Assembly: GCA_016176465.1 (NCBI GenBank)
Contig: JACOXD010000004.1
Location: forward strand, 114,119-178,118
Source: Candidatus Daviesbacteria bacterium
GTDB taxonomy: Bacteria; Patescibacteriota; Microgenomatia; Daviesbacterales; UBA10151
DNA: 64,000 nucleotides
Direction of reading: 5' to 3'
Within the stretch, counting starts at the first letter, position 1, and each line of letters starts with the position of its first letter. Below, one piece after another: positions 42,993-64,000 of the stretch. The notes under the pieces were generated by a model that was not told the DNA's origin, did no database searches, and worked only from the letters and a program-made list of their open reading frames with translations. A program made the translations under genes and the position numbers.

Positions 42993-43454
42993 CTAAAGAC
43001 TTTGTTTAGCTATCAATATAAAAATTATAGAGGTTAAAAAAAACCCTACCAGGAGAAAAATTTTATCTGTATTTTTATACTCCATTAGTTGATCTTGCTT
43101 AAAGGTTGTTGCAGTGTATTTACTTTCTATAAACCCTTTAACTTTATCACTTAGAAAAAATATATTTTCTTTATTTTTTCCTCTTACTTCACTTTCTATA
43201 TGATTTGGACCATATTTAAAAATATAGATTCTTGTATCATTTAACTCTAAAGATGTGGAATTCTTAATATCTTCACGAAGCTTTTTAACTACTTCATCAA
43301 TTGAGGTTTGACTTGAGCTAAATCTTAGCTCAAAATATGAGTTAACCTTTATCTGCTTGGGTTCCATAATATAAAGATAAAAGGGCAAGCATAGGGCAAA
43401 AATTATTAGAATAAAAAGTACACTTATCTTTTTAACAGTTTTATGAATACTCAT
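42993..43454 (-). CDS. Hypothetical membrane-associated protein
   Basis: 153 aa with N-terminal and C-terminal hydrophobic helices. Confidence 0.3.
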   Translation of the reverse strand: MSIHKTVKKISVLFILIIFALCLPFYLYIMEPKQIKVNSYFELRFSSSQTSIDEVVKKLREDIKNSTSLELNDTRIYIFKYGPNHIESEVRGKNKENIFFLSDKVKGFIESKYTATTFKQDQLMEYKNTDKIFLLVGFFLTSIIFILIAKQSL

Positions 43455-43854
43455 CTAACGCCTTATTTGCCAGCCTATCGGCAATAAAATTTTCTCTTCT
43501 GGGCACATTTTTATAACTTATCACTCCCAAGTTCTCTTCCACCTCTTTAATTTTTGAGAAATACTCTTTGAGTTTTAAGTTTTTAATTTTATAGACTCCG
43601 GAGAGTTGTTTTGTAATTAACTGTGAATCAGAAATAATCTTCACTTCATGAGGAGCTTTTCTACTAAAATAAGTCTTTATATATTCCAGCGCCTTTAATA
43701 CTGCTACATATTCTGCAATATTATTGGTAGCAGTGCCAATTGTTTTTCCTTCCTGATGCAAAATTACACCCAAGTGGGTTTTAATTATAAAACCATAAGA
43801 GGAGGGACCTGGATTACCCCTGGATGCACCATCAGTGTTAACTATTAATTTCAT
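43441..43854 (-). CDS. rnhA: Ribonuclease HI
   Basis: MKLIVNTDGASRGNPGPSSYGFII (catalytic D), E in EYVAVLKALEY, and D in ISDSQLI, the RNase H DEDD motifs. Confidence 0.7.
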   Translation of the reverse strand: MKLIVNTDGASRGNPGPSSYGFIIKTHLGVILHQEGKTIGTATNNIAEYVAVLKALEYIKTYFSRKAPHEVKIISDSQLITKQLSGVYKIKNLKLKEYFSKIKEVEENLGVISYKNVPRRENFIADRLANKALDEYS

Positions 43855-48173: not shown

Positions 48174-48314
48174 TTAGATTGTTAAACGATGAGCACCTTT
48201 TAACCGTCTTCGTTTCAAAATTAACTGTCCGGTTTTAGAAGACATTCGAGCCCTAAATCCATGTTTTTTTTGGCGCTTAGCTTTTTTAGGCTGGTAGGTA
48301 CGTTTAGTAGACAT
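48174..48314 (-). CDS. rpmH: Ribosomal protein L34
   Basis: [46 protein letters not shown] is near-consensus L34. The longer track ORF (to 48401) is a spurious 5' extension through oriC sequence. Confidence 0.85.
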
Positions 48315-48401
48315 GGGGACAAGTATACTATACTTACCCGGGATACGAAATATGTAATATGAAATATGTTTACTTATTGTGTCTCGTATTCCGTATCTCA
48401 T

Positions 48402-48488
48402 ATCACATATCCCAAAAATATATTTGATCCATTAATTAATAGTTTCTCTCTCTTTACCTGTTGATAACTTATCCACTAATATAGCTTC
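48402..48488. promoter_or_regulatory. rpmH-dnaA intergenic region with DnaA-box-like 9-mers (oriC part 1 / dnaA promoter)
   Basis: TTATCCACT at about 48466-48474, and TTGATAAC (the complement, TTATCAACA-like) at about 48457-48465. An adjacent AT-rich repeat tract (ATACGAAATATG / ATATGAAATATG) lies at 48330-48400. Confidence 0.45.
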
Positions 48489-49820
48489 ATGGACGAAAAG
48501 GAGAGAAAAAAGATCTGGACGAAGATAACTGATGTTATTAAAGAAGAAATCTCATCAGCCAATTTTAGAACCTGGTTTTCTCAAACAGTGCTGGGAGAAA
48601 TAAGTAATGAAAAGATGGTGATATTTGTCACTTCTGCATTCATTAAAAACCAGCTCTTATCACGCTATCAATCTTTACTTGAAGAGGCTATTGAAAAAAC
48701 TTTGGGCAAAAAAATGGTGGTTGAATGTAAAATAAACACCACAATCAACTCAATTTCGGAAGAAAGTTTTGAGCTGGAAACTCCTCCACGACTACAATCT
48801 TTTGTAGGCCTTAACCCAAGATATACTTTAGCCAATTTTGTGGTTGGATTAACCAATAACTTAGCTTATGCAGCGGCTCAAGCCGTTGTCCAAAACCCAG
48901 GCATCTCTTATAACCCTTTATTTATTTACGGTCCATCAGGGGTAGGGAAGACTCACCTGATGCAAGCTATTGGTAATGCCATTTTTGGCAAAAATTCCTA
49001 CTCAAAAATAGTTTATGCTCCCTCAGAACGCTTTATGGTTGATTTTGTGGATTCAATTCAAAATAAAAAAACAGGAGATTTCCGCTCAAAATACCGATCC
49101 TCCAATTTATTATTAATAGATGATATCCAGTTCATAGCTGGAAAAGATTCCACACAGGAGGAGTTTTTCCATACTTTTAATGAATTACACTCCAAAAATT
49201 GCCAGATTGTTTTGACTTCAGATAGACCTCCTAATGAAATGGTAAAATTAGAATCCAGGTTACTCTCCAGATTCCAAGGGGGATTAATGGTGGACATTCA
49301 ATTACCTGACTTTGATACCCGGATGGCAATATTAAAAACTAAATTAAAAGAGCGAGAAGAAACCCTTCCTGAGGAATATCTTAAGCTAATTGCTGAAAAT
49401 ATAGAATCCAACACAAGAGAGCTTGAAGGGAAGCTTATTCAAATACTGCAAATGAGCAAACTAAGCAACCAACCCCTAAATGAAGACTCGGTTAGGAAGT
49501 TTTTGGGATCTAGACATAAACAATTATCAGCTAATATAGATCATAAAAAAGTTCTAACAACTTTAAATAACTATTTTAATATAAAAACAGCGGATTTAAC
49601 TGGTCCTAGACGGCAAAAAGAATTAGTTTTACCCAGGCATTTGGCAATGTATATTCTTTACGAAGAGTGCAAAATTCCCATGGAAAAGATTGGTCAAATT
49701 TTAGGAGGTAGGGATCACACTACTATTTTGCATGGGATTGAAAAAATAAGGGGTAATTTAGGAAGGGACCGGGAAGTACAAAGACTACTGATTGAAATAA
49801 AACAACAGCTTCTAAATTAA
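48489..49820 (+). CDS. dnaA: Chromosomal replication initiator DnaA
   Basis: AAA+ motifs: Walker A GPSGVGKTHL, Walker B LLLIDDIQF, sensor and arginine-finger regions. The C-terminal DNA-binding domain (LTGPRRQKELVLPRHLAMYIL..., IGQILGGRDHTTILHGIEKI). Confidence 0.9.
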   Translation: MDEKERKKIWTKITDVIKEEISSANFRTWFSQTVLGEISNEKMVIFVTSAFIKNQLLSRYQSLLEEAIEKTLGKKMVVECKINTTINSISEESFELETPPRLQSFVGLNPRYTLANFVVGLTNNLAYAAAQAVVQNPGISYNPLFIYGPSGVGKTHLMQAIGNAIFGKNSYSKIVYAPSERFMVDFVDSIQNKKTGDFRSKYRSSNLLLIDDIQFIAGKDSTQEEFFHTFNELHSKNCQIVLTSDRPPNEMVKLESRLLSRFQGGLMVDIQLPDFDTRMAILKTKLKEREETLPEEYLKLIAENIESNTRELEGKLIQILQMSKLSNQPLNEDSVRKFLGSRHKQLSANIDHKKVLTTLNNYFNIKTADLTGPRRQKELVLPRHLAMYILYEECKIPMEKIGQILGGRDHTTILHGIEKIRGNLGRDREVQRLLIEIKQQLLN

Positions 49821-50002
49821 ATATCCACATTTCCCCTTTAGTTATCCACATACTTTTCCACAATTTTAAAGTATTTTTCAACACGAAAAAAGTTCGAAAT
49901 CTATTCTTAAATTGCTTGGTTTTTAAACTTATGCACATGCTCTATAATAGCTATTACTAATTTGAATATATTATATTTATCTAGAAATAAGTGGACAACT
50001 AA
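49821..50002. promoter_or_regulatory. oriC DnaA-box cluster with an AT-rich unwinding region, between dnaA and dnaN
   Basis: ATATCCACA (49821-49829), TTATCCACA (49842-49850), TTTTCCACA (about 49854-49862), TTATGCACA (about 49928-49936), and an inverted TTGTCCACT (about 49989-49998). These are interspersed with AT tracts (TTTTAAAGTATTTTT, TATAATAGCTATTACTAATTTGAATATATTATATTTAT). Confidence 0.65.
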
Positions 50003-50461
50003 ATGGAAATAAATTGGGTTGTTATTTTATTTATTGTACTTGGGTTGATAATTGCTTATTTAATCGGCAGACTGCAAGCAAAACCAAAATCAAGCGATAT
50101 TCCACAAGATTTCATAGATTTGTATAAACAAGTTGAAGGACTACCTTTAAGAGTTTTACAAACCATTCAAGGCTCAATTAATCCCCAGAAAGGAAAAATG
50201 GCAGAGCTTTTAACCTATGCAGAGCTTAGATATGATTATGATCGGATCATTCCGCTAGGTTGGCCAATTGATTTTATTGGAATTAAAAATAATGAGCGGA
50301 TTGATTTTATAGAAGTTAAATCAGGAAACTTTGCACTCTTGACAGATGAGGAAAAACACATTAAAAACCTTATAGTTAAAGGATCTGTTCATTTTAGATT
50401 AATTAAAGTAACAGAAGAAGAAATTTCTAAATTTATTTCTGCCCAAAAGGAAGGAAATTGA
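50003..50461 (+). CDS. Membrane-anchored PD-(D/E)xK nuclease-fold protein (YraN/Hjc-like), inserted between dnaA and dnaN
   Basis: An N-terminal TM helix (WVVILFIVLGLIIAYLIG). The pattern GKMAELLTYAELRYDYDRIIPLGWPIDFIGIKNNERIDFIEVKSG matches the E...(x)GEiDlia....e..fVEVK.R arrangement of YraN (UPF0102) and Hjc nucleases. Confidence 0.45.
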   Translation: MEINWVVILFIVLGLIIAYLIGRLQAKPKSSDIPQDFIDLYKQVEGLPLRVLQTIQGSINPQKGKMAELLTYAELRYDYDRIIPLGWPIDFIGIKNNERIDFIEVKSGNFALLTDEEKHIKNLIVKGSVHFRLIKVTEEEISKFISAQKEGN

Positions 50462-50477
50462 CAGTAATCAATTAACA

Positions 50478-51587
50478 ATGAAGATTACAATACTCCAGCA
50501 GGATTTGGTTGGTCCTCTCCAGGCAGTTTCCCGCTCAACCGGAAAGAGTAATTTACCAGTGCTTGCTAATATCTTAATCCAAACAGAAGCAGGTAAACTT
50601 AAACTCTCTGCCACTAACTTAGAGATAGGGGTTATAAAAAAAGTTAATGCAAAGGTGGAAGAAGATGGAGAAATCACTGTCCCATCAAGAACCTTTCTTG
50701 ATGTTATAACCTCACTAACAGGTGAAAAAATAACTTTAGAGGGCTCACTTGACCAATTAAAAATTTCTACCAGTAGTTTTAAAGCATCCATTAATGGGAT
50801 CCCAGCTAATGAATTTCCCTCAATTCCTTTAGCATCAGAGCAATCAGTTGTTTTAGATGCTTTTATACTAAAGCAGTCTTTGCCTGAGATTACTTTTGCA
50901 GCAGCTGTTGATGAGGGAAGGCCTATTTTAACTGGAATTTTAACTGAAATAAAAAAGGATTCCCTAGAACTTGTTGCAACAGATGGTTTTAGATTGGCTC
51001 ATAAGAAGGTTAAGATATTAGGAGAAGGGGAGTTTAAAGCTTTAATTCCCAGAAAGACTTTTGAAGAAATTGTTAGGTTAATTGATGAAGATTTAGTAAA
51101 CAGTAAAGAAGAAAAAGTGGAAATGGCAACAGCCGAAGGTCAAAACCAGATTATTTTTAAAATTGGCCAAACTGAACTTTCCTCTCGCTTAATTGAAGGA
51201 AATTTCCCATCCTGGGATAAAATAATCCCAAAAGAGTTTGAAAACAGAACTATTATTGAAAAGGGGGAACTTGCCAAAGCTGTCAAGCTGGCCTCAGTCT
51301 TTGCAAAAGACGTCGCTAATATTATAAAGATCCAAACCAGTGAAAATAAAATTATAGTCTCATCAGAGACAAAGGAGTTAGGTTCACAGGAAAGTGAAGT
51401 TGAATGCCTTGTTGAGGGCTCCCCTTTAATTATTGCTTTTAATGGTCGCTTTTTATCAGACGTACTAGCAGCTTGTTCCACTTCGCAAATTGCCATAGAA
51501 TTTTCCGGATCTTTATCAGCTGCGCTGCTTAAGCCAGTTGGGGAAGAGGGGTTAGAATATATTATTATGCCTGTTCGCTTAACTTAG
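50478..51587 (+). CDS. dnaN: DNA polymerase III beta sliding clamp DnaN
   Basis: MKITILQQDLVGPLQAVSRSTGKSNLPVLANILIQTEAGKLKLSATNLEIGV... with three-domain clamp architecture, in the conserved position after dnaA. Confidence 0.85.
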   Translation: MKITILQQDLVGPLQAVSRSTGKSNLPVLANILIQTEAGKLKLSATNLEIGVIKKVNAKVEEDGEITVPSRTFLDVITSLTGEKITLEGSLDQLKISTSSFKASINGIPANEFPSIPLASEQSVVLDAFILKQSLPEITFAAAVDEGRPILTGILTEIKKDSLELVATDGFRLAHKKVKILGEGEFKALIPRKTFEEIVRLIDEDLVNSKEEKVEMATAEGQNQIIFKIGQTELSSRLIEGNFPSWDKIIPKEFENRTIIEKGELAKAVKLASVFAKDVANIIKIQTSENKIIVSSETKELGSQESEVECLVEGSPLIIAFNGRFLSDVLAACSTSQIAIEFSGSLSAALLKPVGEEGLEYIIMPVRLT

Positions 51588-52051
51588 GCACCCCTATACT
51601 CAATGGTTTTAAAATGGAAAATTACCGGATCGCTTAAGGTTTTATTATTTTCAAACTTGGTACCTACTTGAATATTTAATGTATATCCCTGGCCTAAGGA
51701 AAAAGGATCATTTGGAATAATTTTTAAGGTTTTATTATTATTAGTTAGCTCAACTTTAAAGTCTATATTGGGTTCAATAACTATTCTGGTTTCAGGGATA
51801 TTTACCAAGGGTTGGTTAAAATTAATCTCCAAAGTCTGTGTAGGTAAAATAGTAGCTTCCTCTAGTGGGGAAGGGTTAGTTGAGATAACCTTGGGAGTTT
51901 CATCTTTAGGTTCTTGGTCAGCTGTAATAGGAAAATCTTTAACAGGAGTTTCACTTTTTGAGTAAAGTCCACCTTGGAAAATAGCAATTAGTAAAAGTCC
52001 TAAAACAGTAATTATAATTATTAATGGTTTTTTTAATAAAGAGAATTTCAT
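51584..52051 (-). CDS. Membrane-anchored extracytoplasmic protein (hypothetical), the last gene of the T4SS-like cluster
   Basis: 155 aa with an N-terminal TM helix (LLKKPLIIIITVLGLLLIAIF) and a beta-rich ectodomain. Confidence 0.35.
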   Translation of the reverse strand: MKFSLLKKPLIIIITVLGLLLIAIFQGGLYSKSETPVKDFPITADQEPKDETPKVISTNPSPLEEATILPTQTLEINFNQPLVNIPETRIVIEPNIDFKVELTNNNKTLKIIPNDPFSLGQGYTLNIQVGTKFENNKTLSDPVIFHFKTIEYRGA

Positions 52052-52656
52052 TCTCTGATTAAGTCTTCTTTAATAGGTCCTGATTCATTAATATCCTCAC
52101 CAAATTCTCTAATGTATTTCTCAGCAGTGCTTGGTTTAAATAATTGTATTTCATAAACTTCCTCTGTAAAAGGATTCGCAATCAAGGCAACGCCTTTAGA
52201 GCTATAAATATGAGTTTCGATTAAGGGTCCATATGTCTTAGAGCCTTTTTTGATACTTTCCACTTCGCCAAATCTTTCCTTGAAGTAGGAAAGCTTGACA
52301 TAAGATGGATGATTTGTTTGTTCTGGAATATTTATTCTTTCAAAGATAACTTGGCCATCTTTAACAATTACTTGATCTGGTCTTACAGGATTAATGTAAG
52401 TTTCTAAATTATATTCAACCTTTCCCTCTCCCAGCTCTTTTTTCTCCTTTATTATTAAGTTTTTTTCTATCTCTTGGGAGTTGGTTTTCCCAATTATTGT
52501 TTTTTGTAAATCAGAAATTTTAGGTGGGGTTAAACTCTCTTGTGGTTTTTTTAAAAATATAATTAGTAAAAGTATTAATATTAAAATTAAAAGTAAAACT
52601 AAAATCAATATGAAAACTGGCTTATTTTTAGGTATTAAAAAATAAAATTTATCCAT
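52048..52656 (-). CDS. Membrane-anchored extracytoplasmic protein (hypothetical, in the T4SS-like cluster)
   Basis: 202 aa with an N-terminal TM helix (VFILILVLLLILILILLLIIFL). ATGA overlaps give translational coupling. Confidence 0.35.
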   Translation of the reverse strand: MDKFYFLIPKNKPVFILILVLLLILILILLLIIFLKKPQESLTPPKISDLQKTIIGKTNSQEIEKNLIIKEKKELGEGKVEYNLETYINPVRPDQVIVKDGQVIFERINIPEQTNHPSYVKLSYFKERFGEVESIKKGSKTYGPLIETHIYSSKGVALIANPFTEEVYEIQLFKPSTAEKYIREFGEDINESGPIKEDLIRE

Positions 52657-52657
52657 A

Positions 52658-53401
52658 TTAATAGTTTCCTAATATATAGTTTGCCACATTATAGTGAAGA
52701 GGGAAATCCTCTCTTAAGTTTGGCGGGTGATAATCTGGTGAACAAAGGACTGTTTGCAATTTAGTTTCTGGGTTTAAGTAGTAAGCAATAGTTTCTGCAA
52801 AATCCTCAGAAATGTTATTACTTTTAGTGCATTCATATGCGTGGTTGCCATACCAAGTAACTCCTTTCTCAACCGCATGGGCCCTGAGATAATCTGACCA
52901 GCGAATCTGTTCCCGGTTATTACAGTTTGCAATAACATGGCCTAGTTCGTGGATTAATATTAACTTAAAAAGGGTTTCATCTTGGTAGGTTCCTACGTAT
53001 ACACTAACGCCTTTGAAACATCCCACTTGGGAAGAATCACGAGGGACTGAAGCAAATATTGTTGAGCCACGTACGTAATCAAAAAATTTTGTGTGAGAAA
53101 CATCCCAAAATTTTTCCCAAGCCCAGCGTAAGTGCCTGGTTCCATAATTTCTCATGGTAATTCCAAATTTTTCTTTAATTGCCCCTTCCAATGCAGCATC
53201 AGGAATATCTGGAGCAGTAGCCCTTACTCCTAGCTGAAGGGAGTTAGATACTTGTGGTTTTTGATCTAAGGGAGCATCACCAACCCTGGTGATTACTGGG
53301 TTACTCTTAACTGATTCCTGTGCAAAAACCAAACTAATAGTTGGTGATACTAAAAATGATAATAAAATTAAGATGTAAGTTAGGATTTTCATAATTAACA
53401 A
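52658..53401 (-). CDS. Secreted HExxH zinc metallopeptidase-like protein
   Basis: An N-terminal signal peptide (MKILTYILILLSFLVSPTISLVFAQE) and the LILIHELGHVIANC HExxH motif. Cys-rich. Confidence 0.45.
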   Translation of the reverse strand: MLIMKILTYILILLSFLVSPTISLVFAQESVKSNPVITRVGDAPLDQKPQVSNSLQLGVRATAPDIPDAALEGAIKEKFGITMRNYGTRHLRWAWEKFWDVSHTKFFDYVRGSTIFASVPRDSSQVGCFKGVSVYVGTYQDETLFKLILIHELGHVIANCNNREQIRWSDYLRAHAVEKGVTWYGNHAYECTKSNNISEDFAETIAYYLNPETKLQTVLCSPDYHPPNLREDFPLHYNVANYILGNY

Positions 53402-53973
53402 CCCGGCGCCATCGGATCAAATTTATATCCGCTTCCGCGCAGCTTATTGGAGACTTCAAAATTCAGATAAAATACTGCCGGAACCTGGCAAATCCCCTCA
53501 TCGCTAAAACCTTGTTCTTTAAACCAGCTAACCGTCTCCTCTTTAGCAAGGTCAATATCTGTAGTTAAAATTTCTACCATAAATTCATCCGCTGCTTTTA
53601 CATACTCTACCTTAAAGGTAGAAGTTGTAATTAAAATAGAAGATTGGTTTCCAATTGATGAAAGCAAAGAATCTTTAGCCGCCTGGTCCAAAGAAGAGAG
53701 GGTTTGACGATTTTCTAATCTATCAAGCAATTTTTTGGTCTTTGGGCTTTCATAAGTTATTGGAGGTTGTGTAATTTCTGATGAAGGAGCTGGGGAGAAA
53801 CTTGGAACACTAGATGGCAAGGGAGAAGTTCTCAACTCTTTTTTAGAAAAAAGGCTAGAGATTATTATAAAAACTAACCCTAAGATGGCAATTAATAAAA
53901 TAATTATTAAAATTTTAGTATTTCCAGGAATTAAACTTAGCATCTTATTATCGCCTATACTTATCTTGGGCAC
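53395..53973 (-). CDS. Membrane-anchored extracytoplasmic protein (possible VirB8-like bitopic component)
   Basis: 192 aa with an N-terminal TM helix (ILIIILLIAILGLVFIIISSLF), a Ser/Pro linker and a globular C-domain. The topology matches VirB8-like proteins, but there is no motif evidence. Confidence 0.3.
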   Translation of the reverse strand: MPKISIGDNKMLSLIPGNTKILIIILLIAILGLVFIIISSLFSKKELRTSPLPSSVPSFSPAPSSEITQPPITYESPKTKKLLDRLENRQTLSSLDQAAKDSLLSSIGNQSSILITTSTFKVEYVKAADEFMVEILTTDIDLAKEETVSWFKEQGFSDEGICQVPAVFYLNFEVSNKLRGSGYKFDPMAPGC

Positions 53974-55713
53974 AGGCCCAGTAACCCCAGGTTCTACCTT
54001 TGGTTGCTAAGAAATTATTGTAATTGATTGCATTAGTCGTTTGTAAGGTCCAAACCACATCTCCATGGTCATACTGGCCATTTCTTCCTCTGCCCATCTG
54101 ATAAAGTCCCCATGCACCTTGCGGATCAGGTGACCCACTGAAGAAATCATTTGGGTTATAACTACTTTCACAAGGGATAATTACATTAAACCAGAAATAA
54201 GCGTTAGTTGGATCATTTTGCTCTATGAGGGTATATAAATCATCTTTAGTAAAATTACATTGGGGGTCACCATAATTTTGCCCCAATGGGTTATTTAACT
54301 TATACCTTCCACTACATGTGTCATTATTTGCAGGAACATTTCCGGTAGTTGGAATGGTTCCAGCTCCACTAGTTGAGGTTATCTTTGCATCAGCACTGTT
54401 TACTACCCAAATATTATCATCAAGTGGGGCAACAACTAAAGCTAGTTGTTTAGTTTGACCTGAGGAAAGAGAGAATTGCCAGGTGACCACCTTACCTCTG
54501 CATTATCAGGGATAATATCTGTTACCTCAATATTAGCTATTCCTTGACCTAGGTATCCAACATTAATTGTGTATACAATAGGTTGTCCATTAGCAACCGC
54601 TCCATCAACCCCCCCTGGCCCTGTTTTAGAAATTGCTAATTGTTTGGAAGAAGATAGATTTTGGCCAGGAACTCCTCCTCCAAAAAGATTTAAAAGCATT
54701 GCCCCAAAAATTATCAAAAAAAGTAATCCTATAAAAAGTAGAGCTAATCTTTTATCAGCGATGGTCCTGGTTGGACCAAAGCGCCTAAACCTTCCAAAAA
54801 ACCGCCCTCCATTCCCTAGAAGTCTACCTCTTCCTGAGAAAATTCTTCCCAGATTAATATTTGGCCGCCAGGAGAACATATTTCTTAAAGGCATCCTAAA
54901 AGTTCTGGAGCTACCACTACTGCCTCTAAGGATGCCCATAAAACCTAAAATTCGATTACTAAAAAAAGCACCGCCTAATCCGCCAATGGCAGCGCCACCC
55001 CAGCTTCCGACTATTCCACCCATGACTGCCCCAGCACCGCCAGTCCATAAAGCAGGCTTACTTAAGATTTTTTTAAATGGAACAGTGTTAATTTTATTGA
55101 GAGGAATTTTAGAGAGGAGGTTGCTACTTCTTTGAAAAAAACTCCCTAAATTTTGCCTAATATTAATTGGTGCTCGCGGAATAGGACTTGGAGCAGGAGG
55201 CGAAGAAGGAGTAGGTGTTGTTGGAGTTGGAGGTTGACTCGGTTGGGGCTGAGGAGGGCTGGCGGGTGGCTGTGGAGGTTGTTGGGGAGGAAAGGGGGCT
55301 TGGTGGGGGAGGCTTGCTGGTGCAGAAGCTCCTCCATGAGATGGAGTAGGAGATGGTGTTTCTTGTTGTGACTGCTGGGCTAACTCAGCTTGTTCTGCCT
55401 CTGCTTCTTGTCTAAATTGCTCAATAACCTCTTTTGGCTCCTCAATTACTTTATTGGAATTCCAAATTTCATTTAGGTCAGGATCATTTCTTGCATAAGC
55501 AGTAGCAACAGTATCAATATAGCCTTCAGTTGTTGGCAAAACCTTAAATTTTGCTGGTAGAAATCTCTTGGAGTATTTAACAGCTAATTTTCGTGAAATG
55601 CGAGATGGAAACCCAGGGATGTTTAGGCTCCTAAATTGATCCTGCTTATTTTTATGAAACCTTAAAATTACGTTTAAAAGTGCTTTATGTAAACTAAACT
55701 GGACTAAAGCCAT
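53948..55713 (-). pseudogene. Surface protein with a Pro-rich region, a TM helix, a DUF11 conserved-repeat domain and a C-terminal VirB1-like lytic transglycosylase (SLT) domain. It is interrupted by a -1 frameshift at about 54442-54490 (track ORFs 54442..55713 and 53948..54490).
   Basis: Upstream ORF: PQQPPQPPASPPQPQPSQPPTPTTPTPSSPPAPSP, a Gly-rich segment, the TM LALLFIGLLFLIIFGAMLL, then a DUF11-like IVYTINVGYLGQGIANIEVTDIIPDNAEV. The DUF11 unit continues in the -1 frame as VVTWQFSLSSGQTKQLALVVAP. Downstream: SLT motifs CESSYNPN (ES), GAWGLYQM (GLMQ-like) and NAINYNN (AYN-like). Confidence 0.5.
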
Positions 55714-55715: not shown

Positions 55716-57497
55716 TTATCCTCCTTTAATTAAATCCTCAGGGTTAGCGGTTATTAACTGGTGCTCCTCAGGGGAAGCAATTACAGACATCGCAACATGT
55801 GTTGGCCCGGCAAAAAATAACCCCTGGCCTACCCCAGCAGATAATAAAAGCCTCATCTCTCCCTCTGATAGATTAAATACTTCCCCAATGCGTTCAATTG
55901 AGGCAGGGCTTTGTTTTAATAGAATTTGAATTGATGAATTAGAGATAATCTCTTTTCCCCGATCTCCTCCTAAGAAATCCTCTACATCTTGAGTAATGGT
56001 TGTTACTCCCAAAAAATATTTCCTTGCTCTTTTAGCAATTTCTACTAAAAAATCAGCTGAGTCAGGATTTTTCATCATATACCAGGCCTCATCTACAACC
56101 AGCAATCTTTTTTTACGCTTAATCCTGATTTTAGTCCAGATATAATCTAGTATTAGATACATAGCTAGCGGCCGCAGCTGATCTGCTAAATCCCTGACAG
56201 AAAATACAGTTAAAGAGTTAGATAAATCAATATTTGAAGGAGCGGAAAAAATCCCAGCCAGCGATCCTTTAATAAACCTCTCTAGTCTAAAATTTAATTC
56301 CAATGCTTGAGGTTCTTCCATACCAGCTAAAACTTTGTACAAATCTTCCATCAAAGGAGGTGGGTTTTTTTGAGTTTTTGGATCAGGGGTAATGCCTTTT
56401 AATCTATAGGTAGTAGTTATTGCTCTATCGAGTATTGCTGCTTGCCCGGCATCTAAACTTCCCAGCACTAATTTTAAAAACCCGGTTAATGATAAAATCT
56501 TTCTACCCAACTCATTTTCACCAGTCATGGCAACAGATGATAAATCAAAAGGGTTAATTTTAATTGGGGAATCAGATGAGAAATTAATATAATTTCCACC
56601 AATGGCTTTAGATAAACTTAGATACTCTTGTTCAGGATCAATTACTATAGCATCTGTCCCAAACATTAAAGAACGCAGCGTTTCTAATTTTACTAAATAT
56701 GATTTTCCCGCGCCTGACTTGGCGAAGATCGTACTGTTCCCATTCTCTAAACTAAACCTGTCAAAAATAATTAGTGAATCATTGTGCTCATTAATTCCAT
56801 ACATTATTCCCTCATTAGCAGTTAGTTCTGAGGAGGTAAATGGAAAAGTAGTAGCTAGGGATGTAGTATCCATATTATGGTTAAGAAGTAAAAGGTCTGC
56901 TCCTAAAGGTAGTGTTGAGATAAAAGAGTCCTCCATCTGCAAGGTTAGAGGATAAGCGTTTATGGAAAGTGAAGCTAGGGTGGATTGTAAAATCTTTGAG
57001 GTATTATCCAGTTCTTCTTTGGAGCTTGAAGGTAGTGTAATATATAACCCCAATTGGAAAAATCTTTCCGCCCCTCTGGCTAGTTGATCTTGCAGCGCTC
57101 TGGCATCATCCAAGGAAACTTGAACTGAAGGGTCTATATCCCTACCTCTTTCCAAATCAGTTTGGATGGTTGCTTCCATTTCAGCAATCTTTCTTTTTAG
57201 ATCATCCAAAATATCTTTTGAGGTAGATGGATAAATAAACATGGAAATATTTAACGAATGATCAAAAGATACTAGTGGTTCAAGCCAGTTTGGGCCAATA
57301 TAACGAGGGTAGCCTGCCACAAAAAAAGAACGAAAATATGTAGTGTTGATTCTTAAATGATTAAAATCAATCTCCATATCTTTAGGAGATAAAACATCAA
57401 CCAAAGAGACTGAATTGTTCACTGTTAATGGCGCATTGTTAATAGAAGTACTTTGAGTTTTTTTAGGCTTAATAAGATCAAGTAAAGGTATTTTCAT
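55716..57497 (-). CDS. VirB4/TraE/PrgJ-family type IV secretion ATPase (C-terminal ATPase domain)
   Basis: Walker A FAKSGAGKSYL, Walker B RLLVVDEAWYMM, and a length of 593 aa. Overall collinear with the CagE/TrbE/VirB4 C-terminal region. Confidence 0.75.
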   Translation of the reverse strand: MKIPLLDLIKPKKTQSTSINNAPLTVNNSVSLVDVLSPKDMEIDFNHLRINTTYFRSFFVAGYPRYIGPNWLEPLVSFDHSLNISMFIYPSTSKDILDDLKRKIAEMEATIQTDLERGRDIDPSVQVSLDDARALQDQLARGAERFFQLGLYITLPSSSKEELDNTSKILQSTLASLSINAYPLTLQMEDSFISTLPLGADLLLLNHNMDTTSLATTFPFTSSELTANEGIMYGINEHNDSLIIFDRFSLENGNSTIFAKSGAGKSYLVKLETLRSLMFGTDAIVIDPEQEYLSLSKAIGGNYINFSSDSPIKINPFDLSSVAMTGENELGRKILSLTGFLKLVLGSLDAGQAAILDRAITTTYRLKGITPDPKTQKNPPPLMEDLYKVLAGMEEPQALELNFRLERFIKGSLAGIFSAPSNIDLSNSLTVFSVRDLADQLRPLAMYLILDYIWTKIRIKRKKRLLVVDEAWYMMKNPDSADFLVEIAKRARKYFLGVTTITQDVEDFLGGDRGKEIISNSSIQILLKQSPASIERIGEVFNLSEGEMRLLLSAGVGQGLFFAGPTHVAMSVIASPEEHQLITANPEDLIKGG

Positions 57498-57500
57498 ATC

Positions 57501-58271
57501 TTAATCCTCTAGTTCCTCAACAACAAATGGTGTAGTAGTTCTTGGTTCACTAGGATAAGCTATCGGTGCTGTTTTTGGTGTAGTAGTTGCCTGAGGGCTA
57601 GTTATTGGAGGTGTTGAGGGTTGAGTTGTTGCCATCTGAGCAGGTGGATTAGGGGTAGAAAGTGAAGAAGCGAGGGGTAAGTTTAAATTAGTTGATTCAA
57701 CTTCTAAAACAGTTTCTTGAAATTCACTAGGGTTATAAATATCATAAAATAATTCAATTAACTTAGCACTGTTTAATTGCTGCGCTCGCAAGCCTATTCT
57801 CCATAATTGACGGATAATATGGTCTCGCCTTGGAATTAAAATAGTCAAAGCTTTTTGGCTGTTTTTGGTACTATTTTTTGTTAAGCCAAGTTCTAGATAA
57901 GAGAGGGGAATGATTATAAAAAATTGTTTATCCAAAACATCATTTTCTTTTACTGTTTGGGAGATAAAATTTTTATACCTTAAAATCATTGATGCAAGTA
58001 AGGGGTTACTTTGTTTTTTGTGTGCCTCTTCAAGCTTTTCCAAATAAGAGGTGACATTTAATCTTTTAGACCTAATCATAATTTGAATTGAAAAAGAAAG
58101 TGAGTTTAAAAGTCCGGCAAAACCGCTAATGATAGAAAGCTGTTCTCGCTCAGATAGTAAGCCAAAGTTAACAGCGCTTGTCTCCAATATAAGTGCTAAG
58201 CTAGAATCTTTTAAAATGACTAAATCACCTTGGATATCTTGGATTGGTAAATGTTCTTGAGTAGTAGCCAT
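57501..58271 (-). CDS. VirB4 N-terminal-domain-like protein (a separate ORF immediately upstream of the ATPase ORF), with a Pro/Thr-rich C-terminal tail
   Basis: LPIQDIQGDLVILKDSSLALILETSAVNFGLLSEREQLSIISGFAGLLNSLSFSIQIMIRS matches the N-terminal pattern of Gram-positive VirB4 homologs (ip.~~i~dgii~~kdGsy~kil~v~~iN~~L~s~~E). A TAA stop and a 3-nt spacer precede the ATPase ORF. Confidence 0.45.
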   Translation of the reverse strand: MATTQEHLPIQDIQGDLVILKDSSLALILETSAVNFGLLSEREQLSIISGFAGLLNSLSFSIQIMIRSKRLNVTSYLEKLEEAHKKQSNPLLASMILRYKNFISQTVKENDVLDKQFFIIIPLSYLELGLTKNSTKNSQKALTILIPRRDHIIRQLWRIGLRAQQLNSAKLIELFYDIYNPSEFQETVLEVESTNLNLPLASSLSTPNPPAQMATTQPSTPPITSPQATTTPKTAPIAYPSEPRTTTPFVVEELED

Positions 58272-58308: not shown

Positions 58309-59490
58309 TCATAGATTTTTGGCATGGATACTTATAGGAGGAATTACTTTTCCATCAAGCGTTATCTCTAAAGTGTCAAAGTAAAATCCTTCTTTTTCAA
58401 GGGTAATTGTGTAAGTTCCATTAGGTAGGGGTGTTGCCGCTAAGAATTGGCCTAATTTGTTTGATTTTAGGGCTCTAACGGGTAATCCTTGCTTATCATG
58501 GGTTACAATAATTACGCCATCCAAATAATTACCCTGGTTATCAGTTACTATCCCATTAATACTATTGGGTGTGGAAGTTAAAGTGATCTTAGTATCTTTG
58601 CTTGATGCAAGCTCTGGTGCTACTACTACTTTTTTGGGAGTAGGGCTAATTGGGGTTTGGGCAAGCAAAGCTAATTTATGGGAGATTTCTGCTTGCTGAT
58701 TATTTAATGCTGACAAAGTTTCTAAAGCTAGTTGAAGCTGTGCAGCAAAATAGGTAGTATTAGTACCTGGTTGGACAGCCGCAGCTTTTATGCGGTTAAT
58801 CAAATTTTGCGTTTCTATAATTTTAGTTTGGATAATTTGAGCTTGCTTGGCTAGCTCCACTTCCAAATGTAGTTGTTCACTGCTAGGCAAATGGGGAGGC
58901 ATAAAAGTTTTTGGTACCTCAGGAGGAATTTGTGGTTGAGAGAGAGTTGAGGGTTGTTTTGGAGGAGTTGTTAGGGGAGGAGTAATGGGCTGGTTAATAG
59001 CTTGAGGGGCAGGGATATTAATAGTTGAAGCGGTAGGAGTGTTTACAGGTGAGACTGTAGCAGTTATTGGAGCTGCTTGCTGGTCAAACCTAGCTATGGT
59101 TGTTATTTTAGGAGTAGTTGAGTTTTGAGGTCTTGGGGCAAAACTTAAGAGGTAATAAGCTAAGCGGTTTTTAAAAAACAATTCATCTTTTTTAATGTTT
59201 TTAGATTGCCAGGTTCTTTTTGTTGGATTAAATATTGCTTTAAAAAAAGTTATTGCCCAATGATCTAGAGGTCTTTCATAAATGGGTAAAAAAGCAAAAG
59301 CTGCTCCAAATGAAGCTGAGATTATAATAATAGGCCAGGCAATTAAAGGAAGCTTAGGAGCAATTAAAATAAAAGTTAAATAAGCAGTTGCGAGTCCTGC
59401 TGCCAGATAAAGAAACTGCTTTAGTGTCATATCGCCAACTAGATGAAATTCAAATTGGCTGACATTTTTAGGTACAGGGTGTCCGTCCAT
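58309..59490 (-). CDS. PrgI/VirB3-like two-TM membrane protein with a Pro/Thr-rich linker, a coiled coil and a C-terminal carboxypeptidase-regulatory-like beta-sandwich domain
   Basis: The N-terminus FEFHLVGDMTLKQFLYLAAGLATAYLTFILIAPKLPLIAWPIIIISASFGAAFAFLP shows the PrgI-family hairpin topology. The C-terminus GIVTDNQGNYLDGVIIVTHDKQGLPVRALKSNKLGQFLAATPLPNGTYTITLEKEGFYF is a CarboxypepD_reg-like fold. Confidence 0.45.
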   Translation of the reverse strand: MDGHPVPKNVSQFEFHLVGDMTLKQFLYLAAGLATAYLTFILIAPKLPLIAWPIIIISASFGAAFAFLPIYERPLDHWAITFFKAIFNPTKRTWQSKNIKKDELFFKNRLAYYLLSFAPRPQNSTTPKITTIARFDQQAAPITATVSPVNTPTASTINIPAPQAINQPITPPLTTPPKQPSTLSQPQIPPEVPKTFMPPHLPSSEQLHLEVELAKQAQIIQTKIIETQNLINRIKAAAVQPGTNTTYFAAQLQLALETLSALNNQQAEISHKLALLAQTPISPTPKKVVVAPELASSKDTKITLTSTPNSINGIVTDNQGNYLDGVIIVTHDKQGLPVRALKSNKLGQFLAATPLPNGTYTITLEKEGFYFDTLEITLDGKVIPPISIHAKNL

Positions 59491-59639: not shown

Positions 59640-59820
59640 AATCTTTAATCAGGGGAAAAGCGATGACCCGCTTCGCAGCGAGGCGAGAATTTCGCTGTTG
59701 TGCCGCAACCGTATAACCGGACTGCCTGAATCCTTTTTCTCTTCGAGCAAAGAGTCCGCAAGAAGCGGATGGGTTTACCAACTTAAACCTCCTCGAAGGG
59801 GGTATTTTTTTGCTAAAAAT
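59640..59820. repeat. GC-rich repeat-derived leader region. It contains partial copies of the hairpin-element family (gcgatgacccgcttcgcagcgaggcgag) and a GATTGG-N6-CCAATC inverted repeat.
   Basis: It shares AGCGAGGCGAG and CGCTTCGC cores with 7095-7120. The track ORF start at 59698 lies in this repeat (MCRNRITGLPES...), so the true start of the downstream gene is probably ATG 59821. Confidence 0.45.
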
Positions 59821-61098
59821 ATGAAAGAATCCCTTGCTCAAACCCCACATTATTTAGGGGAAAATTCTATATTAGATGGGACAGGCTTTGATTTATATAA
59901 AGAAGTCCAAAGATTTTTTTTAAACTTAAATCAAGCTAACAATCCTACACCTGAGCTTGAAGCTAATATTAGAACTTATGTAGTGGAATATATCTTTAAC
60001 GGAACAGTAATACCTCATTTAGTTGATCAAGACGGCGAGGGAAATGTAATTAACAGCTATGACAAACAAAGAATAGTTAATAAAATTACCCCAAGTGAAA
60101 GAAGAGGTGTAATTTTAAGAGCTTCAGAAAAAATTGATGAGTTTTTTAGGAATTTGAGAAGAACAGGCAGAAAAGGTCTTGCAGCAGTCAATAGTCCTGA
60201 AGGTTGGACAGGAATGAGAGATAGTGAAGGAGACTTAATTGAATATGTTAATCATCAAATCCCCATTTTTTGGACGAGGGAGGATAAAAGGTTTAGGGGT
60301 TTAACTTTAGTAACTGATTTAACGCCTGAGCAATCAAAACAATTATCAATTAACTTAGGAATTAATGAGATAAAGTTATCAAGACAAGGTGAGGATTTAA
60401 TTTGCGATATTGTGGAAAACCCAGCAACATTTAGTTATCCAAGATCCCGAATTAAAACACCAGAAGATGTTTTCCAAGAGATCTTAAGAGTTAGAGGCTC
60501 TGGTGATTTTGCCTTTAAACAACAGGATGGGTCTATAAAGTATGTACCTGTTAAAAAGATGCTTGAGGATATTAGAAGGTTTGATGAGCTGCTTGAGTTT
60601 AGTGAAGAGATAGAAGTATATATTGCAAATTTAAAACAGTTTATTTTAGATAATACAATAGATTTTAAAAATCATTTTACTCAAAAAAGATTAGTGAGTG
60701 AAATAGAAAGAACAATTCTGAAAATAACAAGGGTAACTCTTATATCAAGTACAAATGTCATCCTGACCCGCCTGGGCGGGGAAGGATCCACAAAATTAGA
60801 TTCTTCGCCTTCGGCTCAGAATGACAAACACGCTTTGAATGACAATGATTATTTTCCATCTCCAGATAATTTTAAAAAAGAGATTGCTTATTTAAAGATG
60901 CAAGCAGGCTGTGCTGGAGGGGGTAAAGGAAAAAGAAAGGTTTTACTATCTGATAGTGCTAAAGTTTTAGAAAATTTAAACTCTTTTGGGGTTGGTAAAG
61001 GAAGAAGGTGTAAAATGTGTGGGGAGATAAATTATTGTAGTGAGAGTTGCTGGAAAGAGGATTGTGGTGGAGATTTGGATTTTGCAGCTGCAGCATAA
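59821..61098 (+). CDS. Hypothetical protein with a C-terminal Cys-rich zinc-ribbon-like motif. It carries an internal hairpin-element insertion (60745-60818).
   Basis: MKESLAQTPHYLGEN... and a C-terminal CKMCGEINYCSESCWKEDCGGD (C-x2-C...C-x3-C-x4-C). The segment TNVILTRLGGEGSTKLDSSPSAQNDKHAL is encoded by the bipartite GC-rich element. Confidence 0.45.
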   Translation: MKESLAQTPHYLGENSILDGTGFDLYKEVQRFFLNLNQANNPTPELEANIRTYVVEYIFNGTVIPHLVDQDGEGNVINSYDKQRIVNKITPSERRGVILRASEKIDEFFRNLRRTGRKGLAAVNSPEGWTGMRDSEGDLIEYVNHQIPIFWTREDKRFRGLTLVTDLTPEQSKQLSINLGINEIKLSRQGEDLICDIVENPATFSYPRSRIKTPEDVFQEILRVRGSGDFAFKQQDGSIKYVPVKKMLEDIRRFDELLEFSEEIEVYIANLKQFILDNTIDFKNHFTQKRLVSEIERTILKITRVTLISSTNVILTRLGGEGSTKLDSSPSAQNDKHALNDNDYFPSPDNFKKEIAYLKMQAGCAGGGKGKRKVLLSDSAKVLENLNSFGVGKGRRCKMCGEINYCSESCWKEDCGGDLDFAAAA

Positions 61099-61133: not shown

Positions 61134-61335
61134 TCAAGTATCTGCTTTATATTTTATCTCTGCAACGTCAAAAAGACTTAACCCCTTTGGCAATTCTACT
61201 AAAATATCAATATCACTGTCTTCTTTTGCTTCTCCTCGCACATACGAACCAAAGAGAACAGAACGAGTCACTCCCGCCTCTTTTGGGTGAAAAGATGCAT
61301 TTGAAGCTAGCTTAGGGTATAATTTAAAAACAATG
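61134..61335 (-). pseudogene. Truncated MNT-type (Pol-beta-like) nucleotidyltransferase gene fragment without a start codon
   Basis: The minus strand encodes ...IVFKLYPKLASNASFHPKEAGVTRSVLFGSYVRGEAKEDSDIDILVELPKGLSLFDVAEIKYKADT*, which contains the GS-x9-DxD minimal-NTase motif (LFGSYARGEA.EDSDIDLLV). There is no in-frame ATG. The 137-aa track ORF extends antisense through the Pro-rich 5' end of the large plus-strand gene. Confidence 0.4.
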
Positions 61336-64000
61336 GCTGATGGACCTGCCAATAAAGAAGCCGACGGAAACAATGCACCGCCTGAACCCCAAGCAGGTGC
61401 GACTCCAATTGTTCCTTTAAGACCTCCTGGTTCACTAGGTGGATTTAGAAGAGGACCAGTAACTTTAGGGCCTCCAACAGAGCCTGTTACTGAAGCCCCG
61501 GATGCTGAGCCAGAAGAGGAGGAAGAAACAGCTCCATCCCAACCCATACCCCCTTCAGTGACTCCTCCTGAAGTAGTACCAAGTCCACCAGTTGCTTCCC
61601 CTTGGTGGAAAGATGCAGAACCTACTCCAGTTGCGCCTCTTGTCGCTCCACCCCTTATTCCTCCCAGTGGAGGACCTCCAGCCCCTCCTATTCCACCTAC
61701 TGGACCTCTCCCAGAAGAAGCTGGTGATGGGAAATATGAACCGGCTACTCCTTTATCTGAAATGCAAAGACAATATAATTTCCAACATATTCTAAGAGAA
61801 ATTCAGTATGTTGAGGCTACATATCCTGATGCAACCACAAGGCCGGCCGAATGGCAATCTTCTTATGAAGAGGCATTATACTTAAGGGACGCTTATTTAC
61901 AAGATGCTCAAAATAGAAATTTGTTTGCTGACTTACAAAGAGAACTCGATTTTAGCTATGTTGAATTACAAAATGAGTTCTCTCAAAACCCAGCAGCAGG
62001 TTTTCGTTTGGTTAGGAAATTAAGACAGCAAGATGTTGAAGGGGGTATTTGGAGAGATCCCAGATTTGCTGGATTCAAGAGCTGGGGAGAAGGTATCCCA
62101 GATATATATTGGCATACTGGCATAAATAGAATACTACAAGCTTTGGAAGGAAATCCAGCTACTGCTTTTGCTGCTTGGGAATGGCAATCTCCTGCTCTGA
62201 CACCGGAACAAAAGAAAGCTTCCGAAATTCCCCGTGGCAGCTCAGAGTTTAAAGAATTAATGAAAAAAATTAATATTCTTTCTAGAAAATTGTTGTCAAA
62301 AACTATCCCTGTGGATATTAGAATCCAACTAGAGACAGAGCTTACTCAAGCAAAAGAGGCTCGAGATAAACTTGTTGTTGAAGCGAACGACCTAGGTCTA
62401 ATTAGTAATGAATTAAAATGGTTTTTATATAGCCGCTGGAGGTATTTTAGAATCAGGTTGCCTTTGGATCAAAGAAGGGATGAATTTGAACAATATAAAA
62501 ATGATGCTAAACTAAGATCACAAGAAAACCCAGCATTTTGGGAGCAAAATATGGGAGAAAATGGAGAAGATCTTTTTGTTAAGTATGGGGGAGTTATTGA
62601 TTACTTTTGGCAGGAAGGTTGGGATTTAATGGGTTTAGCTATTTTTAAAGATAGATGGGATGATTTTTCTAAAAAAGTTCAGGAGTCAGCAGTGGGTAAA
62701 ATTTGGAATATAGAGGATTTGAAGGGAAATCCAGTAGTAGGAGTAGAGGCTATAAAAAATCTGATTGAAAAAATCAGAATATCTAGAAAACGGTATGCTT
62801 ATTCGCGTGAACGAATAGGTAGTCTAGTTCCTCTAGTCGATGATATTGATGAGCTTCCGGATGTAGTCCTGGATTACTTTAGAAGATCAGCAAAGGCTTT
62901 AGGTAAGGCTAGAATAGATGTACTAATTCAAAATATTGAGCAAAAGAAAAACACTGAGGGGGCAACTTTATTTGATGAATTTTTGCAACTTTTTCCAGAG
63001 TATGAAAATGACCCCCGGGTAGAGCGAGCTCAGGCTTTGATGAATGCAATGTTTAGTATGTTTGGGGCTGAAGCTATTGCTGGAAAAGGTAAAGAAGCAT
63101 GGCCAGGATTTTTCCATTTCTTAAAAGATTTTGTTCAAGATTGGCAAAGCAATTTTGATGCGTTATATTTCAAGCCATTAGTTGCAAGAGCTTTGTATTT
63201 ATTTGCTCAAAACGATGGCGAGTATTTTCGGTTAGGTGCGGTTAGTGAAGAAGATCCTGAACTAGGAGAAATGGAGGCTTTTAAAAAAGCTAAAAAAAGA
63301 GAATTTGTTGAGGATCTAGTAAGACATAAATTAAGAGGTACTAAAGATTTACTAAATAATCATCCTGTTTTCCAACGTTTAAAGAAAAAATTGGATGATT
63401 TAGATAGAAATGATCCAGACTACAATAGTCCAGATTTTGTACCCAGATGGGAAGAATATACCCAAAAAGCCTTGGCAGCTGCCAGCATGAAAACAGCTGC
63501 AGAACAAGCCATACGTGGTGAGGGAGTTGAGGAGCTAGTTGATGAGAAAGAGGAACGAATTAAATTTGAACATGTATTAGCTAGATCTTTAACTGAGGCA
63601 GAATTTGAGGCTATGTATGAAGAAATACAGATACAAGATGTAGAGGATTTTGCAGCAAAGAAGAAAGAAGCAACAGAGGCTGTTGCTATAGCAGAAAGGA
63701 TGATGATTGTTTTAGGTCCAGGAAACAGATTTGCTGGACCCAGGTTAAAGCCCGATGGTGGTGGATTAAAACTAATGTCTGCTGAGGTAAGAGGCAGACT
63801 AGTTCGCTATCTTGAACTTGATGCGAAGAGACCCGTAGATCAGCAAGTATTTAGAGTTACTCATACTTTACATAAATTGGGAATTCATACAACCTTGCCG
63901 GTCTTTAATATGTTTCATCTAGGGGCAGATGACCCAATCCGAACCGCCTTTGAAAAGCATCTTGATAAAAGTGGATTTGATGTAAGTGGAATGAGATGGA
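61333..64000 (+). CDS. Large hypothetical protein with a Pro-rich disordered N-terminus (more than 889 aa, continuing beyond the window end)
   Basis: A continuous open frame from ATG 61333 to the window end. It is absent from the track because it has no stop in the window. The N-terminus is MADGPANKEADGNNAPPEPQAGATPIVPLRPPGS...PPAPPIPPTGPLPEE, followed by a helical, Trp/Tyr/Glu-rich domain. Confidence 0.55.
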   Translation, partial: MADGPANKEADGNNAPPEPQAGATPIVPLRPPGSLGGFRRGPVTLGPPTEPVTEAPDAEPEEEEETAPSQPIPPSVTPPEVVPSPPVASPWWKDAEPTPVAPLVAPPLIPPSGGPPAPPIPPTGPLPEEAGDGKYEPATPLSEMQRQYNFQHILREIQYVEATYPDATTRPAEWQSSYEEALYLRDAYLQDAQNRNLFADLQRELDFSYVELQNEFSQNPAAGFRLVRKLRQQDVEGGIWRDPRFAGFKSWGEGIPDIYWHTGINRILQALEGNPATAFAAWEWQSPALTPEQKKASEIPRGSSEFKELMKKINILSRKLLSKTIPVDIRIQLETELTQAKEARDKLVVEANDLGLISNELKWFLYSRWRYFRIRLPLDQRRDEFEQYKNDAKLRSQENPAFWEQNMGENGEDLFVKYGGVIDYFWQEGWDLMGLAIFKDRWDDFSKKVQESAVGKIWNIEDLKGNPVVGVEAIKNLIEKIRISRKRYAYSRERIGSLVPLVDDIDELPDVVLDYFRRSAKALGKARIDVLIQNIEQKKNTEGATLFDEFLQLFPEYENDPRVERAQALMNAMFSMFGAEAIAGKGKEAWPGFFHFLKDFVQDWQSNFDALYFKPLVARALYLFAQNDGEYFRLGAVSEEDPELGEMEAFKKAKKREFVEDLVRHKLRGTKDLLNNHPVFQRLKKKLDDLDRNDPDYNSPDFVPRWEEYTQKALAAASMKTAAEQAIRGEGVEELVDEKEERIKFEHVLARSLTEAEFEAMYEEIQIQDVEDFAAKKKEATEAVAIAERMMIVLGPGNRFAGPRLKPDGGGLKLMSAEVRGRLVRYLELDAKRPVDQQVFRVTHTLHKLGIHTTLPVFNMFHLGADDPIRTAFEKHLDKSGFDVSGMRW

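Follow-up and report, generated by a model that had tools for sequence, protein, structure and literature searches.

The adjacent VirB4-like ORFs of a Candidatus Daviesbacteria type IV secretion locus are a natural split into a TrsD-like protein and a VirB4-type ATPase

Is a VirB4 gene that reads as two adjacent open reading frames (ORFs) a naturally divided gene or a broken one? The question is raised by a 64,000-nt stretch of a Candidatus Daviesbacteria chromosome (JACOXD010000004.1), hereafter the window, in which a type IV secretion system (T4SS) cluster holds a 256-aa ORF (the N-ORF) followed at once by a 593-aa ATPase ORF. The original prediction left both options standing. Coordinates given below are positions within the window, and all cluster genes discussed lie on the minus strand unless stated otherwise. 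The two ORFs were compared with Pfam profiles, with NCBIfam models at their curated cutoffs, with PDB sequences, with PDB structures using Foldseek, and with single proteins using hhalign; structures were modelled with AlphaFold2 (AF2). The split proved to be natural. The two ORFs very probably encode separately translated subunits that jointly form a single protomer of the VirB4 motor in a monoderm-type (MPF_FATA-like) T4SS.

The 593-aa ORF had been described as a Walker A/B ATPase, and both motifs, AKSGAGKS and LLVVDE, were found. It matched the Pfam families P-loop_TraG (E 1.2e-25; 90.5 bits vs. a cutoff of 25.8), AAA_10 (36.1 bits vs. 27.5) and DUF87 (32.7 bits vs. 23.2). It passed the cutoff of the NCBIfam model conju_CD1110, which describes VirB4-like conjugal transfer ATPases of the CD1110 family, with 378.1 bits against 325. 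The C-terminal domain of Thermoanaerobacter VirB4 (PDB 4ag5) matched aa 226-584 with an E-value of 1.6e-45 and a Foldseek TM-score by target (TMt) of 0.71; TrwK matched with an E-value of 1e-5. The ORF is colinear with the pSK41-type TraE from near its N-terminus, aa 47 standing opposite TraE aa ~47. By these matches the 593-aa ORF is predicted to be a bona fide VirB4. It combines the RecA-like C-terminal domain, which carries the Walker motifs, with the rest of the VirB4 N-terminal domain (aa ~33-225).

The N-ORF had been likened to the N-terminal domain of VirB4, and both hidden Markov models (HMMs) and structure comparison bore this out. Positions 18-173 of the 375 in the Pfam model TraC_F_IV matched the N-ORF (E 3e-4), and positions 292-373 matched the ATPase ORF. 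The NCBIfam model TrsD (NF041427) aligned through positions 14-200/201 with N-ORF aa 3-180 (E 8.6e-7). Two full-length VirB4 models place the ORFs side by side. On VirB4_plasma (894 positions), N-ORF aa 4-194 fall on 104-290 and ATPase aa 24-582 on 292-893; on conju_CD1110 (752 positions), N-ORF aa 21-185 fall on 19-173 and ATPase aa 10-569 on 168-733. The overlap never exceeds 6 model positions, so the two ORFs cover neighbouring parts of one VirB4.

The AF2 model of the N-ORF has a predicted local distance difference test score (pLDDT) of mostly 75-97 over aa 6-182 and is disordered beyond. Foldseek ranks 1-13 against the PDB were all R388 TrwK/VirB4 chains (E 5.7e-4 to 3.5e-2, probability 0.94-1.0), with TM-scores that are modest when computed per 256 aa (0.30-0.36). 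When the N-ORF and ATPase sequences were concatenated, the AF2 model, for which natural fusions had served to scaffold the alignment, matched full-length TrwK with an E-value of 1e-20, a TM-score by query (TMq) of 0.60 and a TMt of 0.64. A phmmer search of the N-ORF against PDB sequences gave chance matches only. In the folded domain, 40 columns are invariant among 25 homologues of 50-64% identity (alignment A1). Its counterpart in full-length VirB4 is the first ~180 residues of the N-terminal domain. By its sequence the N-ORF is best placed as a remote TrsD homologue that lies outside the NCBIfam subfamily threshold. Pfam's precomputed match of this exact protein to PF26593, a TraC-like family, is labelled 'weak'; in the orthologues the match carries no such mark.

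The junction reads GAG GAT TAA GAT ATG, with the ATPase ATG at 57495-57497, which confirms the TAA stop and the 3-nt spacer noted originally. The N-ORF stop, the spacer and the ATPase ATG share one reading frame. A GAGGA resembling a Shine-Dalgarno (SD) sequence is supplied by the Glu-Asp codons of the N-ORF and stands 7 nt 5' of the ATPase ATG. Three independent Logan assemblies (SRR12113430, SRR12113424 and SRR12113383) carry the identical junction with 0 mismatches over 1.7-4.0 kb, a comparison made at the level of assemblies and not of raw reads. The exact 256-aa protein is also on record for a Candidatus Daviesbacteria metagenome-assembled genome (MAG; P0001). No minus-strand terminator was found between the two ORFs, and the promoter and terminator scan was otherwise uninformative. 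Scanned over its full length, the window gave no Rfam or tRNA match. L086 and L087, independent Logan assemblies from the same organism, both end at the same base, window position 56793, within the ATPase gene, which hints at strain heterogeneity or a drop in coverage there.

The junction was then compared across 84 orthologous loci, 80 of them species-representative GTDB loci. Most come from Daviesbacteria and other Microgenomates, and one complete Beckwithbacteria chromosome is among them. Two separate ORFs were present in 84/84 loci, the N-ORF closed by a stop and, as in the window, lying immediately upstream of the ATPase gene in the same orientation. The same adjacency was seen in a further related locus (L089) and in a pSK41-type plasmid locus (L085). 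The geometry of the junction varies freely: there are 27 ATGA overlaps, further pairs overlap by 1-32 nt, and others lie 1-191 nt apart. Relative frames +2, +1 and 0 account for 46, 29 and 9 loci, and the N-ORF ends in TGA (43), TAA (29) or TAG (12). The homologue comparison was limited to the best 120 database matches per ORF. All of these stand alone, at 244-318 aa for the N-ORF and 565-630 aa for the ATPase. One continuous ORF, with the stop replaced by a sense codon, was found in 0/84 loci, in 0/120 N-ORF homologues and in 0/120 ATPase homologues; fused proteins do occur in more distant lineages, where they lack the linker and tail. The two-gene arrangement is old and selected: in this lineage the split is ancestral, and purifying selection acts on it. 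That the window pair shares a frame is incidental, since 9/84 is below the one-third expected by chance. Of the two options offered originally, the natural split stands and the disrupted gene falls.

In about 17 of the surveyed loci (L012, L013, L022, L029, L030, L043, L047, L048, L049, L052, L054, L059, L062, L064, L072, L073 and L081) the genes are separated by AT-rich spacers of 66-182 nt that fold into long imperfect hairpins (z -1.2 to -7.2 vs. shuffles). These spacers look like palindromic elements of the miniature inverted-repeat transposable element (MITE) or repetitive extragenic palindromic (REP) kind, placed between the trsD-like gene and virB4. They could also dampen expression of the ATPase.

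Two readings treat the TAA of the window as something other than an ordinary gene end. The suspicion that a recent nonsense mutation split a single VirB4 gene and left a pseudogene is understandable, because the ORFs share a frame with just one stop and one codon between them, and single-chain relatives exist in other Microgenomates. We dropped this reading, which now seems exceedingly improbable, because the split recurs in every orthologous locus, mostly with the genes overlapping or out of frame, and the best homologues of each half stand alone. It is further opposed by the conserved motif directly before the N-ORF stop, by the ATG, SD-like sequence and conserved N-terminus that the ATPase retains as its own, and by the recurrence of the junction in three independent assemblies. 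The fused relatives lack the whole tail, and do not read through it. Programmed read-through or another form of recoding at the TAA, which would yield a fused 851-aa VirB4 besides the two separate products, is only slightly less improbable. An in-frame TAA with a 3-nt spacer would permit it, and the linker would then be a plain interdomain linker. The other loci overlap or are shifted in frame, so read-through cannot be a conserved mechanism, and this reading was dropped as well. The absence of any Rfam RNA motif from the window also speaks against it, as does the identity of the codon, TAA being the most efficient bacterial stop.

Fusions of the TrsD-like protein with VirB4 bear on whether the two products act together. 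P0178 (787 aa) and ~40 further clusters are of this kind (P0390-P0412 and P0429-P0505), ~43 clusters in total, at 738-897 aa overall and 783-897 aa for the full-length ones. They are colinear with the N-ORF plus ATPase of the window at 51-60% identity over the full length. Where source names are given, they are Candidatus Amesbacteria or unclassified Patescibacteria, lineages more distant than the orthologous loci. In the fusions the TrsD-like domain is joined directly to ATPase residue ~33. A junction of ~5 aa to several tens of aa replaces the linker, the conserved C-terminal peptide and ~30 aa at the start of the ATPase. Joint alignments of N-ORF and ATPase (A3 and A4) were built with the natural fusions as scaffold. 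On a quick neighbour-joining tree of the ATPase core, drawn without support values, the fusions are spread over at least four clades that nest within split forms, and the root is split by parsimony. Proteins that become fused again and again are classically taken to act as a unit, and the repeated fusions of this domain with the ATPase support such a reading.

Two other features of the relatives were noted. The fusions bear a C-terminal extension, in which one clade has the motif K(V/I)RLV and another EAAxLA; the split ATPases have neither. Several related VirB4 ATPases, of 1158-1215 aa, harbour an intein that includes a LAGLIDADG homing endonuclease (PF14528, PF14890). They were seen in L080 (~5300-6900) and as P0427, P0428, P0431, P0437, P0438, P0479, P0481, P0490 and P0506. 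In L080, the sole case inspected at the sequence level, the intein is placed directly after the Walker A residues GAGKS.

The preferred reading can be put as a series of steps. The prgI-, trsD- and virB4-like genes would be co-transcribed, and the ATPase would be translated from its own ATG with the help of the GAGGA. The TrsD-like module would then re-associate non-covalently with the ATPase to complete the VirB4 protomer. It would probably sit on the membrane side of the motor, linking it to the PrgI/VirB3-like protein as in R388, where VirB3 wraps and contacts the N-terminal domain of VirB4. The disordered linker and its PFVVEEL end may serve as a flexible tether or docking peptide, the most speculative and least certain of the steps, and the peptide would become dispensable once the two genes were fused.

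The main competitor to a two-subunit protomer makes the TrsD-like protein an accessory factor in its own right, such as an adaptor, assembly chaperone or regulator, which derives from a VirB4 N-domain in evolution only and recruits some other partner through its C-terminal peptide; the 593-aa ORF alone would then be a complete VirB4. We consider this unlikely, if clearly less so than disruption or read-through. It draws on the facts that the ATPase ORF alone passes the CD1110 cutoff and is colinear with the complete pSK41-type TraE, that TrsD is without an assigned function (PMC12102498), and that AF2 does not dock the tip on the ATPase. The linker-plus-tip layout, resembling the recruiting tails of SSB and FtsZ, would also fit it. 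What speaks for a joint protomer is that the two ORFs occupy adjoining parts of full-length VirB4 models, that fusion has repeatedly joined the domain directly to ATPase residue ~33, and that the joined model superposes on full-length TrwK.

Several observations weigh against the joint protomer or limit how far it can be taken. The TrsD HMM scores the N-ORF at 29 bits, far under the 200-bit cutoff, and the hhalign probability against a single TraD sequence is just 44%. In the AF2 model of the concatenation, pLDDT is below 50 at aa 186-282, from the linker through PFVVEEL to aa 26 of the ATPase, so that docking of the tip is unsupported by the model. The physical complex of the two products is inferred from sequence and models. 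The function of TrsD has never been experimentally determined (PMC12102498). Lastly, the next gene of the cluster appears to be frameshifted, and it cannot be taken for granted that the system as a whole is active here.

The N-ORF was originally said to end in a Pro/Thr-rich tail, and composition agrees: Pro plus Thr make up 40% of aa 183-247 and 7% of aa 1-182. The pLDDT of this linker is mostly ~45-56. Among homologues it is unalignable and varies in length, and the fused relatives are without it. After this hypervariable stretch the tail ends in a nearly invariant motif, PFVVEEL(x)D(D/E)Y (alignment A1). PFVVEEL stands at the C-terminus in nearly all Daviesbacteria-type loci and in 31/149 representative clusters of TrsD-like proteins, and it occurs once in the window. 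A role of the tip codons as an SD sequence is unlikely to be the whole reason for this conservation, because the motif is kept where 66-182 nt part the genes. A pairing of the acidic tip with the basic N-terminus of the ATPase (MKLPxLFKK) was considered and is not supported, since the two do not strictly co-occur and pLDDT is below 50 in both segments. The basic N-terminus is kept without PFVVEEL in L067, L068, L070, L077, L078, L081 and L082, and PFVVEEL is present without the basic N-terminus in L010, L016, L033, L060, L065 and L084.

A second tip, LPP(L/I)(P/A)EI(K/T), was seen at the extreme C-terminus in 26/149 clusters, in proteins of 356-715 aa (P0203-P0257). These proteins form another large group and have very long low-complexity linkers. 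In L089 (5001-7148), the sole LPP-tip locus inspected, the order PrgI, TrsD-like, VirB4, dnaA, dnaN is that of the window.

A globular domain followed by a disordered linker and a conserved C-terminal peptide is the layout of FtsZ and SSB, whose tails recruit partners. By analogy, the layout of the N-ORF tail suggests a docking function. A more tentative proposal, which we put at rather less than even, is that the N-ORF product is a detachable VirB4 N-subdomain, held to its partner in the manner of FtsZ and SSB by a linker of 65 to >450 aa and a lineage-specific tip. With the motor in two pieces, an essential, non-conjugative T4SS could regulate how the motor is assembled or give it a different stoichiometry, and the fused lineages would no longer need the peptide.

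The features of the locus are collected in Table 1.

Table 1. Positions and supporting evidence for the VirB4 pair and its neighbouring cluster genes.
Feature	Position	Strand	Description or basis
N-ORF, 256 aa	57501..58271	-	TrsD-like folded domain, linker and tip
Folded TrsD-like domain, aa 1-182	57726..58271	-	First part of VirB4 N-terminal domain; pLDDT, Foldseek, HMMs
Pro/Thr/Gln-rich disordered linker, aa 183-247	57531..57725	-	Composition, pLDDT, alignment
Tip PFVVEEL, aa 248-254, candidate docking peptide	57510..57530	-	Near-invariance in alignment
Junction	57498..57509	-	GAGGA 57505-57509, TAA 57501-57503, GAT 57498-57500
VirB4-type ATPase, TrsE/CD1110 type, 593 aa	55716..57497	-	Pfam, NCBIfam, PDB 4ag5
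Walker A AKSGAGKS, aa 259-266	56700..56723	-	Motif in 593-aa ORF
Walker B LLVVDE, aa 465-470	56088..56105	-	Motif in 593-aa ORF
PrgI/VirB3-like membrane protein	58309..59490	-	First gene of prgI-trsD-virB4 unit
Large membrane/Pro-rich protein with DUF11-like sandwich, in two ORFs	53948..55713	-	54442..55713 and 53948..54490

The gene directly upstream of the N-ORF encodes a Pfam PrgI domain (E 6.8e-9; 36.6 bits vs. a cutoff of 27) and a C-terminal beta-sandwich resembling CarboxypepD_reg (E 1e-6). A PrgI-like gene holds the same place in L001, L003 and L089. Beyond the cluster lie dnaA (48489..49820), dnaN (50478..51587), yidC and jag, and the PrgI-TrsD-like-VirB4 order recurs next to dnaN or dnaA in relatives. 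No Pfam match for VirB6/PrgH, a VirB8-like protein, a VirB1-like hydrolase, a type IV coupling protein or a relaxase was found in the ORFs of 52658-55713, in 59698..61098 or in the larger ORFs of 39954-52656; the scan did not take in 1-39953 or the ORFs 50003..50461, 51584..52051 and 61134..61547.

The gene downstream of the ATPase is in a different state from the VirB4 pair. It is present as ORFs of 423 and 180 aa in different frames with a 49-nt overlap, where L001, L009 and L052 have single ORFs spanning both pieces. The 13-17 aa that join the halves of the DUF11-like domain in these orthologues are missing from the window. The gene appears to be frameshifted by a deletion near 54490-54500, which is either real or an error in the MAG consensus; the Logan assemblies stop short of this position. 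No product identical to the 423-aa ORF is on record. This frameshift is the likeliest actual defect in the T4SS cluster. The predicted VirB4 pair itself gives no ground to doubt that the system functions.

Three further ORFs were noted nearby. The cluster's distal end holds a 247-aa ORF (52658-53401) with a signal-peptide-like N-terminus, an HExxH motif (IHELGH) and no Pfam match; it may encode a secreted metalloprotease. On the plus strand and divergent from the cluster, a 466-aa ORF (59698-61098) is assigned to no family apart from a weak zf-MYND-like match in its Cys-rich C-terminus (E 0.007); the opening ~40 codons look non-coding, and the true start is probably further downstream. A 982-aa ORF on the minus strand (39954-42902) combines an NAD-dependent epimerase/dehydratase domain with DUF4012 and adjoins Polysacc_synt and Wzy_C genes and a stand-alone RNase H-like ORF (43441..43854).

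For annotation, the TAA between the ORFs is not a lesion, and VirB4 is to be recorded here as a TrsD-like protein plus a VirB4, not as a pseudogene. Gene-calling and pseudogene pipelines should neither merge nor flag such pairs in Patescibacteria. Should the downstream deletion be real, it may impair this genome's T4SS whatever the state of VirB4. The conserved tips and recurrent fusions are concrete experimental handles. In the cultivated Patescibacterium Ca. Southlakia epibionticum ML1, T4SS genes are reported to be essential for epibiotic growth and the TrsD homologue is listed as essential (PMC12102498), so the assembly of a two-piece motor matters to the biology of this group.

Full-length VirB4 proteins, such as TrwK of R388, the CD1110 family and the Mycoplasma Mbov_0397 family, are rebuilt whole by the N-ORF plus the ATPase, both in HMM coordinates and in fold. 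They differ in that the chain of the window is broken after the first N-terminal subdomain and its N-piece has an extra disordered tail of ~75 aa. The Amesbacteria-type fusions (e.g. P0392, KKU02692.1) share the full-length identity given above; unlike the window pair they are single polypeptides without linker or tip, and they carry the C-terminal extension. The closest plasmid counterparts are TrsD plus TrsE of pGO1 and TraD plus TraE of pSK41 and pIP501, in the pGO1 subclass of MPF_FATA, where a small homologue of the VirB4 N-terminus likewise lies directly upstream of a VirB4 ATPase of ~600-670 aa. In the pSK41-type Staphylococcus aureus plasmid locus L085, a 227-aa TraD (TrsD HMM 227.6 bits) is followed by a 670-aa TraE. 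The N-ORF alignment gave a colinear 173-column hhalign match to this TraD (E 2.3e-4). The plasmid TraD has neither the Pro/Thr linker nor PFVVEEL, and the similarity of the window protein to TrsD is remote. The window locus also differs in being chromosomal, beside dnaA and dnaN, with neither a relaxase nor a coupling protein seen in the scanned flanking ORFs (39954-53401, on the dnaA side, and 59698..61098; 1-39953 and 61134..61547 unscanned).

The nearest known system is the distinct, MPF_FATA-related T4SS of Patescibacteria (Quinonero-Coronel et al. 2025, PMC12102498). That study found TrsD to be the most abundant T4SS component in Patescibacteria, with 2,272 homologues, 1,664 of them beside virB4; it reported TrsD as remotely homologous to the VirB4 N-terminus and as limited elsewhere to the pGO1 subclass. 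It also described VirB3 as interacting with VirB4 and securing it at the inner membrane, and in Microgenomatia it found the cluster often near dnaA/dnaN, VirB6 scarce or divergent, and relaxases mostly absent. In Guglielmini 2014 the name TrsD is absent from the main text. Word searches of the text of PMC12102498 returned no statement on conserved C-terminal tips, TrsD-VirB4 fusions or inteins; as far as those searches reach, the tips and recurrent fusions are a modestly novel side-lead. In its Patescibacteria-specific VirB4 clade, its TrsD, its PrgI/VirB3 homologue and its vicinity to dnaA/dnaN, the published system is like the window and differs in nothing essential. The pair described here is one more instance of the TrsD plus VirB4 arrangement already known from Patescibacteria.

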